Below are positions 10,124 through 14,427 of a stretch of 64,000 nucleotides of DNA, piece by piece; positions within the stretch are counted from its first letter, which is position 1, and each line of letters begins with the position of its first letter. The notes beneath the pieces are model-generated. The model saw only the letters and a program-made list of their open reading frames with translations, was not told where the DNA came from and ran no database searches. Source of the DNA: Escherichia coli (GTDB lineage Bacteria > Pseudomonadota > Gammaproteobacteria > Enterobacterales > Enterobacteriaceae); the NCBI RefSeq assembly GCF_003018255.1, contig NZ_CP027440.1, one strand, 5' to 3'. The translations under genes were made by a program, and so were the position numbers.

Positions 10124-10414
10124 TTACTGAAAAAACACCGCAATCTTGTTAAACATGGTCGGATCGGACTGATTACGCTGCACTTTCACCACATCTTCCA
10201 GCTTGTCGATTTGGCTTATCATCTGCTCCAGACGCTGGTCGTCATTGACCAGTAGCCAGATGTGGCTTTTGTCGCTGTCCTGAATCGGCAGGCAGAGAAT
10301 ACCTTCAACGTTAAAAGCGCGACGGGCAAAAAGGCCACAAACGTGGGTCATTACGCCCGGATGGTTGCGAACGGTGAGTTCGAGAATCACGTTGTCATGA
10401 GTTGTGTTTTGCAT
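10124..10414 (-). CDS. ilvN: Acetolactate synthase I small (regulatory) subunit, 96 aa
   Basis: ORF 10124..10414 ([40 protein letters not shown]...). Confidence 0.95.
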
Positions 10415-10417
10415 GGC

Positions 10418-12106
10418 TTATTCCCCCACCATTTCAGTATTCGCCGCACCTGGCGGCACCATCGGGTACACTTTTTCTTCGGCATCAATGCGCACGTGGA
10501 TCAGCGCCGGGCCAGGGCGATTGATGATTTCCTGCAATGCAGCCTGCGGATCGGCTTCGTTATTCAAATCACAGGTTTCGAGGCCGAATCCTGCGGCAAT
10601 CTGCATAAAGTTGATTTTGCCCGGATAGGTAGCGGCAAAAACGCCCTGCTTGTAGAACAGACTCTGTTGCTGATGCACCAGCCCCAGCGCTTCGTTGTTC
10701 ATCAAAATGATTTTAACATCCAGCTGATTTTCACTGGCGGTCGCCATCTCCTGAATATTCATCATCAGGCTGCCGTCGCCGGAGAAGCACAACACTTTGC
10801 GGTCCGGGTTCGCCAGCGCCGCGCCAATCGCCGCAGGCAGGCCAAAGCCCATCGTGCCCAGCCCGCCGGAGGTCAGCCACTGGCGTGGGCGATTGAGCGG
10901 ATAGGCTTGCGCCGTCCACATCTGATGCTGACCCACGTCAGTGGTAATAATCGCGTTGTCATCCACGCAGGCGGCAACGGCATTAATCAGGCCGTAATGG
11001 CTTAATGGATCGCACGCTTTCGGGATTGGACACGGGAATTCACGCTGCAAATCCGCCACCAACTGGTGCCACTCTGCACGCGGTTGCGCTTCCACCAGCG
11101 GGATCAACTGCGCCAGCACGTCATCAACATCCGCCTGAATTGCCACATGCGGTTGCTTGATTTTGCCCAGCTCTGCGCGGTCGATATCGACATGAATAAT
11201 TTTGGCATTCGGACAGAACTGCTCGGTTTTGCCAATCGCCCGGTCATCAAAACGCGCACCGAGTACAATCAGCAGATCCGCCTCCTGCAAAATATAGTTG
11301 GTGCTGCGCACACCGTGCATCCCCAGCATACCCAGCGACAGCGGATGTGCTTTTGGCAACATACCCAGTGCCATTAAAGTCATGGTGGTAGGCAGTTGCG
11401 CTTTCTCCGCCAGTTCACGCACTCGCGCAGGCGCGTTGATCACACCACCACCCAGATAAAGCACCGGGCGTTTGGCGGCGTTAATCATCGCCGCCGCGTC
11501 ACGAATACTTTCTTCGCTAAAGGCGGGTGCGGCGGCTTTTTCTGCCATAGCGGGCTGTGTTTCAATCTCAAAAACTGCCGTTTGCACATCCTTAGGAATG
11601 TCTATCCACACCGGGCCAGGGCGGCCTGATTGCGCAATACGGAAGGCATCGCTCATGACCTGCGGGAGTTCTTCGATATGTCTGACCAGATAGTTGTGTT
11701 TGGTGATGGGGATAGAGATGCCGTAGGTGTCGACTTCCTGGAAGGCGTCGGTGCCGATCATCGAGGCGGGAACCTGACCAGTAATGCAAATCAGCGGGAT
11801 GGAGTCCAGCCGTGCATCGGCAATGGCGGTCACCAGGTTAGTCGCCCCCGGTCCGCTACAGGCCATACAGACCGCCGGTTTACCGTCGGTGCGCGCCATT
11901 CCCTGAGCGATAAACCCCGCGCCCTGTTCATGGCGAGCCAGAATATGGCGGATTTGCGTGCTTTGGCTTAAGGCATCGTAAACAGGCAGGATAGAACCGC
12001 CCGGAATGCCCGTCACAATCTTAATGCCCTGCTGTTCCAGGAAATGAACGATAAATTCTGCGCCGGTAAAGCGCTTACGCGTCGATGTTGTGCCCGAACT
12101 TGCCAT
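10418..12106 (-). CDS. ilvB: Acetolactate synthase I large subunit, 562 aa
   Basis: ORF 10418..12106; thiamine diphosphate enzyme sequence. Confidence 0.95.
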   Translation of the reverse strand: MASSGTTSTRKRFTGAEFIVHFLEQQGIKIVTGIPGGSILPVYDALSQSTQIRHILARHEQGAGFIAQGMARTDGKPAVCMACSGPGATNLVTAIADARLDSIPLICITGQVPASMIGTDAFQEVDTYGISIPITKHNYLVRHIEELPQVMSDAFRIAQSGRPGPVWIDIPKDVQTAVFEIETQPAMAEKAAAPAFSEESIRDAAAMINAAKRPVLYLGGGVINAPARVRELAEKAQLPTTMTLMALGMLPKAHPLSLGMLGMHGVRSTNYILQEADLLIVLGARFDDRAIGKTEQFCPNAKIIHVDIDRAELGKIKQPHVAIQADVDDVLAQLIPLVEAQPRAEWHQLVADLQREFPCPIPKACDPLSHYGLINAVAACVDDNAIITTDVGQHQMWTAQAYPLNRPRQWLTSGGLGTMGFGLPAAIGAALANPDRKVLCFSGDGSLMMNIQEMATASENQLDVKIILMNNEALGLVHQQQSLFYKQGVFAATYPGKINFMQIAAGFGLETCDLNNEADPQAALQEIINRPGPALIHVRIDAEEKVYPMVPPGAANTEMVGE

Positions 12107-12153
12107 GCTCCAGTCCTTTTCTTCTGGGCCGACTTTCCGGGAGGTGCTTAAAC

Positions 12154-12190
12154 GAAAAACCCCGCCCGGTTTGCGCCGGCGGGGTTTTGG
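12154..12190 (-). terminator. ilvB leader attenuator (intrinsic terminator hairpin with U-tract)
   Basis: Minus-strand CCCCGCCGGCGCAAACCGGGCGGGG followed by TTTTTCGTTT, between ivbL and ilvB. Confidence 0.7.
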
Positions 12191-12211
12191 AATCGTGTGT
12201 TGTTCCAGTCC

Positions 12212-12310
12212 CTACGGCGCATTGCCGACGACCACCACCACACGCACGACGACCACTGCGGCGGATGGCGCAGTTGGTAGTAGTTTTGCGTTGAGCATGG
12301 AAGTAGTCAT
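12212..12310 (-). CDS. ivbL: ilvB operon leader peptide, 32 aa (Val/Leu-rich)
   Basis: Minus-strand ORF ATG ACT ACT TCC ATG CTC ... encoding MTTSMLNAKLLPTAPSAAVVVVRVVVVVGNAP with a run of Val codons. Confidence 0.85.
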   Translation of the reverse strand: MTTSMLNAKLLPTAPSAAVVVVRVVVVVGNAP

Positions 12311-12436
12311 TGGGGACCTTGTTGGTTTTGTGTTTAACAATATTTATACAAGCACAGCTTTACAGGGGAGACAATGGAAAATTTTTCAGCAAGGGAAAAT
12401 TGAGGGGTTGATCACGTTTTGTACTGAATTGCAGGT

Positions 12437-12513
12437 AACAAAAAACCCCGCCGGAGCGAGGTTTCGTCAGTCGCCTGCGGCTGGTAACCGCAAAGCACAC
12501 TGTATTATGTCAA
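12437..12513 (-). ncRNA. istR: IstR-1 antitoxin sRNA of the tisB/istR type I toxin-antitoxin locus (approximate ends)
   Basis: Minus strand reads GTTGACATAATACAGTGTGCTTTGCGGTTACCAGCCGCAGGCGACTGACGAAACCTCGCTCCGGCGGGGTTTTTTGTT, ending in an intrinsic terminator; a TATACT -10 lies just upstream. Confidence 0.6.
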
Positions 12514-12619
12514 CACTGAAAGTATACGTGTTCCGCGCAGAACGCGCAATTTCGGCACGAATTTTGACGTATTTAGTGCATAGTTGAGTATCGATCACAG
12601 TTTGCGTTTTGTCCAATAT

Positions 12620-12639
12620 TACTGTTTATTTATACAGTA
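12620..12639. promoter_or_regulatory. LexA box TACTGTTTATTTATACAGTA at the tisAB promoter (TATAAT -10 at 12646-12651)
   Basis: Canonical CTGT-N8-ACAG SOS box read directly from sequence. Confidence 0.8.
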
Positions 12640-12873
12640 AACTTCTATAATATCACTGTACGCAATGTGTTATGCGGGGGCCGCATCGTTACCCGGCGCA
12701 CTAAGTCCTGGCAGAAACGGGTGGTGCCGTCAGCGCCTTAACCCCGCGTGAGCACACTGTGTTATGTCAACAAGCACAACGTTTCTCCTTGAGATACCGC
12801 GTGCACAACAGCTGGCAACAGGCAGCGGAAAGGTACGTCAGCTGGCAGTGCTCCTGAACCACAGGAGACGCGT

Positions 12874-12963
12874 ATGAGCCTGGTGGATATCGCCATTCTT
12901 ATCCTCAAACTCATTGTTGCAGCACTGCAACTGCTTGATGCTGTTCTGAAATACCTGAAGTAA
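12874..12963 (+). CDS. tisB: Type I toxin TisB, 29 aa (SOS-induced membrane peptide)
   Basis: ORF encodes MSLVDIAILILKLIVAALQLLDAVLKYLK, followed by an intrinsic terminator. Confidence 0.85.
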   Translation: MSLVDIAILILKLIVAALQLLDAVLKYLK

Positions 12964-12983
12964 TTCAGATTCAAGTCGCACTA

Positions 12984-13014
12984 AAGGGGAGCGGGTAACC
13001 GCTCCCCTTTTATA
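12984..13014 (+). terminator. Intrinsic terminator after tisB (AAAGGGGAGCGGG-TAAC-CGCTCCCCTTTT)
   Basis: Perfect GC-rich stem followed by a T-run. Confidence 0.8.
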
Positions 13015-13242
13015 TTTAGCGTGTGGGTTGGTGTCGGATGCGATGCTGACGCATCTTATCCGCCCTACCATCCCTCCCGGCAACATTTATTGCCGCTTTT
13101 GTTTACATATTCTGCCGCTAAACAATTCCCCATTCCTGGCGTATATCTGGCTAACATTTATCAATGTGATAGATTCCTCTCCCGCATTTATGGGAATGCG
13201 TAGTGACTTATTCTAATTATTTTTATAAAAGCATCCGTGATA

Positions 13243-14427
13243 ATGAAAAGGCATAGAAACGTCAATTTGTTATTGATGTTGGTATTACTCGTGGCCGTCG
13301 GTCAGATGGCGCAAACCATTTATATTCCAGCCATTGCCGATATGGCGCGCGATCTCAACGTCCGTGAAGGGGCGGTGCAGAGCGTAATGGGCGCTTATCT
13401 GCTGACTTACGGTGTCTCACAGCTGTTTTATGGCCCAATTTCCGACCGTGTGGGTCGCCGACCGGTGATCCTCGTCGGAATGTCCATTTTTATGCTGGCA
13501 ACGCTAGTCGCGGTCACGACCTCCAGTTTGACGGTATTGATTGCCGCCAGCGCGATGCAGGGCATGGGCACCGGCGTTGGCGGCGTAATGGCGCGTACTT
13601 TGCCGCGTGATTTATATGAACGGACACAGTTGCGCCATGCTAACAGCCTGTTAAACATGGGGATTCTTGTCAGTCCGTTGCTCGCACCGCTAATCGGCGG
13701 TCTGCTGGATACGATGTGGAACTGGCGCGCCTGTTATCTCTTTTTGTTGGTTCTTTGTGCCGGTGTGACCTTCAGTATGGCCCGCTGGATGCCGGAAACG
13801 CGTCCGGTCGACGCACCGCGCACGCGCCTGCTTACCAGTTATAAAACGCTTTTCGGTAACGGCGGTTTTAACTGTTATTTGCTGATGCTGATTGGCGGTC
13901 TGGCCGGGATTGCCGCCTTTGAAGCCTGCTCCGGCGTGCTGATGGGCGCGGTGTTAGGGTTGAGCAGTATGACGGTCAGTATTTTGTTTATTCTGCCGAT
14001 TCCGGCAGCGTTTTTTGGCGCATGGTTTGCCGGACGTCCCAATAAACGCTTCTCCACGTTAATGTGGCAGTCGGTTATCTGCTGCCTGCTGGCTGGCTTG
14101 CTGATGTGGATCCCCGACTGGTTTGGCGTGATGAATGTCTGGACGCTGCTCGTTCCCGCCGCGCTGTTCTTTTTCGGTGCCGGGATGCTGTTTCCGCTGG
14201 CGACCAGCGGCGCGATGGAGCCGTTCCCCTTCCTGGCGGGCACGGCTGGCGCGCTGGTCGGCGGTCTGCAAAACATTGGTTCCGGCGTGCTGGCGTCGCT
14301 CTCTGCGATGTTGCCGCAAACCGGTCAGGGCAGCCTGGGGTTGTTGATGACCTTAATGGGATTGTTGATCGTGCTGTGCTGGCTACCGCTGGCAACGCGG
14401 ATGTCGCATCAGGGGCAGCCCGTTTAA
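13243..14427 (+). CDS. emrD: Multidrug efflux MFS transporter EmrD, 394 aa
   Basis: ORF 13237..14427 (track start is GTG); ATG at 13243 gives MKRHRNVNLLLMLVLLVAVGQ... Confidence 0.9.
   Translation: MKRHRNVNLLLMLVLLVAVGQMAQTIYIPAIADMARDLNVREGAVQSVMGAYLLTYGVSQLFYGPISDRVGRRPVILVGMSIFMLATLVAVTTSSLTVLIAASAMQGMGTGVGGVMARTLPRDLYERTQLRHANSLLNMGILVSPLLAPLIGGLLDTMWNWRACYLFLLVLCAGVTFSMARWMPETRPVDAPRTRLLTSYKTLFGNGGFNCYLLMLIGGLAGIAAFEACSGVLMGAVLGLSSMTVSILFILPIPAAFFGAWFAGRPNKRFSTLMWQSVICCLLAGLLMWIPDWFGVMNVWTLLVPAALFFFGAGMLFPLATSGAMEPFPFLAGTAGALVGGLQNIGSGVLASLSAMLPQTGQGSLGLLMTLMGLLIVLCWLPLATRMSHQGQPV

Follow-up and report, generated by a model that had tools for sequence, protein, structure and literature searches.

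The region upstream of ilvB in the window (the whole 64-kb stretch of DNA that was analysed) is almost certainly a trp-type transcription attenuator of the ivbL-ilvBN operon, in which the position of the ribosome on a short leader sets whether RNA polymerase continues into the structural genes. The earlier note on this DNA had proposed classical ribosome-stalling attenuation at this place, and the proposal is supported by a family match of the leader peptide, by mutually exclusive hairpins in the leader RNA and by reporter work on the identical allele of E. coli K-12. The open reading frame, its codon run, the two alternative structures with their overlap, the conservation and the identity to K-12 are all observed here, and the element is the known ivbL-ilvBN attenuator, with nothing new in the leader. 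The work of Friden, Newman and Freundlich in 1982 and of Hauser and Hatfield in 1983 and 1984 is said to have founded the study of this attenuator.

The operon is located on the minus strand, and the gene order uhpB, uhpA, ilvN, ilvB, ivbL, istR, tisB, ysdE, emrD is that of E. coli K-12. CDS ilvB (12106..10418, 562 codons) encodes the large subunit of acetohydroxy acid synthase I (AHAS I), with a score of 1088 bits to NCBIfam NF006016 (cut-off 870), and ilvN (10414..10124, minus strand, 96 codons) encodes the small subunit, with 185.8 bits to NF006036 (cut-off 128); both are annotated in RefSeq. A ribosome-binding site AAGGA was read in front of ilvB and together with the start codon it occupies 12118..12104 on the minus strand; the sequence AAAAGGA.TGGAGCATG at this site is nearly invariant in alignments. 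The neighbouring tisB/istR locus is missing from about 20% of E. coli genomes.

The leader of 242 nt shows 100% identity to E. coli K-12 MG1655 (NC_000913.3, ivbL = b3672), which bears out the claim that the attenuator is intact in this strain, and experiments on the K-12 allele therefore apply directly to it. When the comparison with MG1655 is extended to 550 nt, between the istR terminator and ilvB codon 19, the sole difference is C versus T at window position 12435, which sits in the spacer between istR and ivbL, outside the leader. Of 5426 complete E. coli genomes, 5418 matched a 471-nt query around the leader; every match is chromosomal, and nearly all of these genomes have just one. Leader models for Leu, His, Thr and Trp exist in Rfam, and none was found for the ilvB leader, so that the absence of any leader family at E ≤ 1 in a search of positions 11000–14000 says nothing against the mechanism. 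The matches in that interval were istR (RF01400, 150 bits) and chance hits below threshold on the terminator, which is palindromic.

The leader peptide gene ivbL extends over 12310..12212 on the minus strand, with 32 codons followed by UAG, and the inferred product is MTTSMLNAKLLPTAPSAAVVVVRVVVVVGNAP; the open reading frame and its translation were both given exactly in the earlier note, stop codon included. The product matches NCBIfam NF007579 ("ilvB operon leader peptide IvbL") with 78.7 bits (cut-off 60) over residues 1–32 of 32, and Pfam PF08049 (IlvB_leader) with 72.6 bits (cut-off 25). RefSeq gives the name ivbL to an identical sequence in front of ilvB and ilvN. The context is also that of the family, with ivbL on the same strand and directly upstream of ilvB-ilvN, and it is alike in 11 other taxa; the stop codon of ivbL lies 105 nt upstream of the ilvB ATG. 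A Shine-Dalgarno sequence AAGG is located at 12320..12317 (minus strand), 6 nt 5' of the AUG, and its AGG is invariant in all ten sequences of alignment A1.

Codons 19–28 of ivbL, at 12256..12227 on the minus strand, read VVVVRVVVVV. The count of nine Val codons in the earlier note stands, while the tightest stretch that holds them is ten codons and not eleven. Three Leu codons (CUC, CUA and CUA) went unmentioned there; the two rare CUA codons are in tandem as codons 10–11 (12283..12278, minus strand), and all six of their bases are invariant in 10 of 10 sequences of alignment A1, as is most of the Val run across the same ten sequences. The Shine-Dalgarno sequence, start codon and short open reading frame with codons for the end products (nine Val in ten codons, and three Leu) that an attenuator needs are all present. 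Stretches of ten codons with at least nine identical residues occur only twice in the 64-kb window and never when the whole window was shuffled 30 times, and a chance origin of the Val run is excluded. The second stretch is taken to be the antisense reading of the same DNA, since an open reading frame on the plus strand, 12090..12587, gives TTTTTRTTTT there.

The promoter, recognized by its conservation in 11 taxa, is located at 12374..12343 on the minus strand, with a conserved TTGT that resembles a -35 region and with CTGTGnTTGTATAAAT, which holds the -10 region TATAAA at 12348–12343. From the conserved TATAAA, transcription should start at about 12336, about 26 nt 5' of ivbL, which gives a CA-rich 5' UTR of 26 nt. 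A putative CRP site, cGTGA-N6-CCTCA, is found at 12416..12401 (minus strand), with its centre about 72.5 nt 5' of the presumed transcription start. Its conserved left half TGTGATC is kept in 10 of 11 aligned taxa, the variants being CGCGATC in Pluralibacter and TGTGACC in one further taxon. Friden et al. reportedly showed in 1982 that cAMP-CRP activates ilvB. A simple σ70 scanner did not call the ivbL promoter, which presumably fits an activator-dependent promoter with a weak -35 region and does not count against the promoter. The span of 12107–12320 given earlier therefore located the unit and fell short of its true extent, which reaches 5' to the probable start at about 12336 and further to about 12416, where the CRP-like site lies.

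In the RNA, the 5' half of ivbL and the Val run are predicted to form a long imperfect hairpin (12310..12228, minus strand, -33.5 kcal/mol), and a closing helix on the same strand, 12318–12313 with 12212–12207, adds the Shine-Dalgarno region of ivbL and a part of region 2. Across genera, 74–90% of the cells of the long hairpin are paired as against 36–54% in slid controls, and one of the pairs is compensatory. The published helix model for the ilvB leader consists of a protector, a preemptor and a terminator, and the long hairpin is a candidate for the protector or for a pause structure.

An intrinsic terminator, the attenuator proper, is located at 12188..12155 on the minus strand, as judged from folding, from conservation in 11 taxa and from RNAalifold, which recovered it independently. 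The stem AAAACCCCGCCGG / CC-G-GGCGGGGUUUU has the loop CGCAAA and is followed by a U5 tract at 12159–12155. Its G+C core arms are 12184–12176 and 12169–12160 with one bulged G, an A/U extension takes the stem to 12188 and 12156, and the predicted energy is about -21.1 to -23.5 kcal/mol. The G+C-rich hairpin with a U-tract that had been placed at 12154–12190 is thus real, and that span encloses the whole structure. The ivbL stop codon is separated from the terminator by 23 nt, and the U-tract from the start codon of ilvB by 48 nt, so the predicted terminator stands between the leader open reading frame and the first structural gene, as in an attenuator. A simple terminator scanner did not call it, since that scanner permits no bulge, and the miss is no evidence against the attenuator. 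When the terminator segment was shuffled, 26 of 1000 shuffles did as well, and the whole leader is more stable than all of 200 dinucleotide shuffles (z = -3.5).

The alternative structure, an antiterminator at 12221..12172 (minus strand), appears in folds of the nascent transcript with -21.4 to -21.9 kcal/mol. It pairs UGCGCCG (12221–12215) with CGGCGCA (12178–12172) and GGG (12212–12210) with CCC (12183–12181), and it encloses an inner hairpin at 12207–12188. The 5' arm, GCG CCG UAG GG, consists of the last two sense codons of ivbL and the stop codon, and on the 3' side the antiterminator overlaps the 5' arm of the terminator by about 8 nt, at about 12183–12176. The two structures are nearly isoenergetic, and they are mutually exclusive because both need the terminator 5' arm. 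Such mutually exclusive hairpins, for which the earlier note had suggested folding the leader, are predicted in 12 of 12 taxa (here antiterminator 12221..12172 against terminator 12188..12156). As the antiterminator arm includes the stop codon, a ribosome at UAG should block antitermination and one stalled at a Val or Leu codon should not.

Ribosome positions were modelled by masking an assumed footprint of 30 nt in a thermodynamic fold of nascent RNA ending before the terminator 3' arm. The antiterminator forms in these folds with the A site on codons 10–26; with the A site at codon 28 the arm is partly occluded and the antiterminator is partial, and with the A site on UAG the whole arm is covered and no antiterminator forms. 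Equilibrium folds of the full leader gave the terminator together with the long 5' hairpin, and the terminator formed at every masked position of the ribosome. Masked folding of the full-length leader was dropped as a test of the switch, since the decision falls on nascent RNA. On this model the switch would be a kinetic one, as in trp, with the alternative fold appearing only in the nascent transcript.

Classical attenuation leads to termination when there is no translation. The minimum free energy fold of the nascent RNA free of any ribosome has the antiterminator too, and termination in the absence of translation is thus not reproduced by thermodynamics alone. Before the antiterminator forms, region 2 is held in the helix with the ivbL Shine-Dalgarno region (12318–12313/12212–12207) and in a 4-bp hairpin, and according to the folds termination without translation might depend on a slow rearrangement of this earlier-formed closing helix. 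When the 43 nt upstream were shuffled with the terminator arm kept fixed (n = 1000), 28 shuffles were as stable as the antiterminator and 18 were as stable and also sequestered as much of the arm. By folding statistics alone the antiterminator is thus modestly better than chance, because G+C-rich sequence pairs easily with a G+C-rich arm.

Transcription would begin at about 12336, and a ribosome would read the 32-codon leader while RNA polymerase nears the terminator. With ample charged tRNA-Val and tRNA-Leu the ribosome should reach UAG and cover GCGCCGUAGGG, the antiterminator 5' arm, so that the terminator 5' arm is left free to pair with the emerging 3' arm and transcription would stop at the U5 tract, 12159–12155, before ilvB. 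Under a shortage of Val or Leu the ribosome should stall at the Val run (codons 19–28) or at CUA CUA (codons 10–11), the region of the stop codon would be left naked, and the antiterminator 12221..12172 could form, block the terminator and let the polymerase enter ilvBN. The kinetic order of these events is a likely one, and the in vivo response to Val and Leu and to occupancy of the stop codon is known from the literature (PMC11187965, PMC5373646).

It is highly improbable that the hairpin is a plain unregulated terminator, with ilvB read from a downstream promoter of its own and the Val-rich open reading frame incidental. The full-length equilibrium folds, which always give the terminator, and the modest folding support for the antiterminator would suit such an arrangement. 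However, a scan found no promoter-like site between the terminator and ilvB, where the gap is only 48 nt. Of the nucleotide columns in the antiterminator 5' arm, 93% show no change across 11 taxa, and reporters normalised to leader expression show a regulated read-through (PMC5373646, PMC11187965).

The conservation was followed in two samples. A narrow scan of species-representative genomes with a degenerate pattern for IlvB residues AEFIVHFLEQQG gave six Escherichia loci with almost identical leaders. A further sample, from a search for IlvB homologues, gave the regions upstream of ilvB in ten more taxa, namely Salmonella, Citrobacter, Intestinirhabdus, Leclercia, Enterobacter, two Klebsiella groups, Raoultella, Pluralibacter and one other. 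A leader of 31–32 codons with a Val run, ending VVVV[R/S]VVVV(V)GNAP and located 101–107 nt upstream of ilvB, is present in 12 of 12 taxa. A homologue search with the ivbL open reading frame extended to 42 residues from a TTG gave matches from Enterobacteriaceae only.

In the alignment of 11 taxa, 93% of the columns are invariant both from ivbL codon 29 to the stop codon, which is the antiterminator 5' arm, and in the terminator, and 70% in the Val run; the values are 39% for ivbL codons 1–18, 12% for the 5' UTR and 10% for the spacer between the terminator and the ribosome-binding site. Third positions of ivbL codons 19–32 are invariant to 64%, compared with 14% of the third codon positions in ilvB, and this difference suggests that not only the peptide but also the RNA is under selection.

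These values also bear on whether IvbL might mainly be a functional small hydrophobic peptide, for instance a membrane-active one, whose Val run would be selected for the activity of the peptide itself and not as a sensor. The C-terminal half VVVVRVVVVVGNAP is indeed almost invariant as a peptide, and the adjacent tisB encodes a small membrane toxin. The third positions of codons 19–32, however, indicate a constraint at the level of the RNA, and the conserved block does not end with the stop codon but continues into the terminator; the N-terminal half of IvbL varies freely, and mutants with swapped codons shift the amino-acid specificity as attenuation predicts (PMC11187965). A role of this kind as the main one is therefore very unlikely.

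When the leaders were folded separately both structures were obtained in all 12 taxa, the antiterminator with -19.9 to -22.9 and the terminator with -20.7 to -21.1 kcal/mol. The core stems show no variation in 10–12 taxa, and since they never vary the covariation tests are almost uninformative and speak neither for nor against them. Two-sided changes are confined to the inner antiterminator hairpin and to one pair of the 5' hairpin; in the inner hairpin the pairing is kept as GGAAC/GAUUCC, GGAUC/GAAUCC or GAAUC/GAUUC.

The attenuator is reported to be bivalent, responding to both Val and Leu. A gfp gene behind the MG1655 ivbL region is repressed when Val and Leu are both supplied (thresholds of the response: about 0.018 mM for Leu, about 0.3 mM for Val), and it does not respond to six other amino acids that have codons in ivbL; codon swaps in ivbL altered the amino-acid specificity (PMC11187965). 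With paired lacZ reporters in the leader and downstream, deletion of RF3 led to a longer occupancy of UAG and to more attenuation at ivbL (PMC5373646), which is what the geometry of the stop codon and the antiterminator found here predicts.

The small RNA GcvB adds a further layer on ivbL, and its repression is described as weak (PMC9299463). That GcvB should dominate the control of the leader through CA-rich sites, with ribosome stalling secondary, is exceedingly improbable: the CA-rich stretches at 12336–12319 in the 5' UTR and at about 12206–12196 in the loop of the inner antiterminator hairpin do give the best duplexes with R1, but the best predicted one has -15.8 kcal/mol as against a mean of -17.5 for shuffled leaders and is no better than the shuffles, and the layer does not replace attenuation because the response to Val and Leu tracks the codon content (PMC11187965). 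No feature supports a riboswitch or T-box, a terminator standing alone, or a functional small protein, and these readings were rejected.

Compared with other systems, ivbL-ilvBN of E. coli K-12 (b3672) is the same element with the same peptide, and the nucleotides are identical from the promoter to ilvB. The leaders trpL, hisL, leuL, thrL, pheL and ilvL likewise have a short open reading frame with tandem cognate codons, and in them the position of the ribosome decides the outcome, as it should in ivbL. As in trpL and the enterobacterial leaders, the antiterminator and terminator hairpins have one strand in common, and a stop codon near region 2 should let the terminating ribosome block the antiterminator. 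Unlike trpL and the others, ivbL is reported to be bivalent, its regulatory codons being Val (nine) and Leu (three); its antiterminator 5' arm includes the stop codon, and a long upstream hairpin pairs one half of the coding region with the other, with no direct pairing of region 1 with region 2. The ilvBNC leaders of Corynebacterium and other Actinobacteria are reported to exert a similar control on the same enzyme, with an upstream open reading frame rich in branched-chain codons and a three-hairpin model upstream of ilvB (PMC11857589, PMC10272879, PMC1262725); they differ in having an unrelated sequence and in belonging to another operon (ilvBNC) and another phylum.

Direct repeats of 10 bp, GTGGTCGTCG, enclose the Val run at 12256–12247 and 12235–12226 and are 21 nt apart. 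The window carries the standard ivbL allele, and public assemblies of E. coli and Shigella contain alleles with IvbL peptides of 25, 26, 31, 33 and 39 residues; a Shigella sonnei lineage is among the carriers. The 25-residue allele has three Val, those of 31 and 33 residues have one Val fewer and one more respectively, and the 39-residue allele has 14 Val and is an exact 21-nt tandem duplication, as verified at the DNA level. Among the 5418 complete E. coli genomes the 21-nt deletion is apparently absent, the weakest match to a 101-nt core having 96% coverage and 99% identity, and most of the length variants may therefore be rare, neutral or assembly errors. It is a doubtful proposal that gain and loss of codons between the repeats heritably resets the derepression of AHAS I under limitation for Val or Leu, in a contingency-like manner; if it were true, the Val run would be a natural tuning dial of the attenuator.

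The reading made from the sequence alone recovered an experimentally established switch with essentially correct coordinates. The limits of the methods are also illustrated, as equilibrium folding is blind to a kinetic switch and ultra-conserved helices give no covariation signal. Beyond a correct annotation the significance is small, and genome scans could use the locus as a positive control. With an attenuator identical to that of K-12, AHAS I in this strain should respond normally to the supply of valine and leucine.

The type I toxin-antitoxin pair istR/tisB is located immediately upstream of the ilvB promoter. The istR sRNA is encoded on the minus strand at 12440-12569 (Rfam RF01400, 150 bits, full length), and tisB, with the product MSLVDIAILILKLIVAALQLLDAVLKYLK, on the plus strand at 12874-12963, followed by a strong terminator hairpin at 12983-13010 that was found in the terminator scan. 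The presumptive transcriptional start point of ivbL, the leader peptide gene of ilvBN, follows only some 100 nt after the end of the istR terminator. Position 12435, in the spacer just past this terminator, is C in the window and T in K-12 MG1655, and is the sole difference to that strain across 550 nt comprising istR, ivbL and the start of ilvB.

The toxin-antitoxin region is not present in all strains. In 1057 of the 5418 complete E. coli genomes (about 20%) matched by the 471-nt query around the leader, the match is confined to the part downstream of approximately position 12387. One of these, strain E41-1, is without both tisB and istR, and has ysdE about 245 nt from ivbL (comparison locus L021, 1240-1600). 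The interval of the window concerned is about 12387-13100; in this strain the break falls shortly before the ilvB -35 region, and the CRP-like half-site is retained in the diverged form AAAATGTGATCTGCCACGTATTTTT.

The Val run of ivbL is flanked by 10-bp direct repeats, GTGGTCGTCG, spaced by 21 nt (12226-12256, minus strand). IvbL alleles of 25, 26, 31, 33 and 39 residues are found in public assemblies of E. coli and Shigella. The 25-residue alleles, known at the peptide level, have only three Val; one is listed for Shigella sonnei, on 25 contigs, and a second one on 55 contigs. Comparison of the DNA (locus L017, 601-720) shows that in the 39-residue allele 21 nt are duplicated exactly and in tandem. 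No Val-run deletion allele was apparent among the 5418 complete E. coli genomes.

Some weak Rfam matches were also obtained in this part of the window. Over the attenuator hairpin, at 12129-12197 on the plus strand, STnc310 and Pseudomonas P6 both score 21 bits, below threshold, and were rejected as real genes; the likeliest source of the matches is the palindromic G+C stem, with an A-run on one side and a T-run on the other, which looks like a terminator hairpin on either strand. Another weak match, to the REP-like hairpin naRNA4, is found between tisB and emrD (13032-13064, plus strand; 22 bits, below the gathering score), and this is probably a REP element.

The leader contains two CA-rich stretches on the minus strand: the inner hairpin of the antiterminator carries AACAACACACG in its loop (12196-12206), and UAAACACAAAACCAACAA is in the ivbL 5' UTR (12319-12336). 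The sRNA GcvB has been reported to interact, via its R1 seed, with regions matching both of them (PMC9299463). In our duplex predictions the GcvB-leader energies were no better than those of shuffled leaders.

RNAalifold also pairs codons 4-6 of ivbL (CCAUGCUC, 12299-12292, minus strand) with the Shine-Dalgarno and start region of ilvB (GAGCAUGG, 12110-12103, minus strand). The two segments are 8-nt perfect complements about 190 nt apart, mostly conserved across 10 taxa, and include the self-complementary CAUG; by a rough estimate, chance alone would give an 8-nt complement in some 4 of 10 leaders of the same size. The predicted pairing could mask the start of ilvB in read-through transcripts.
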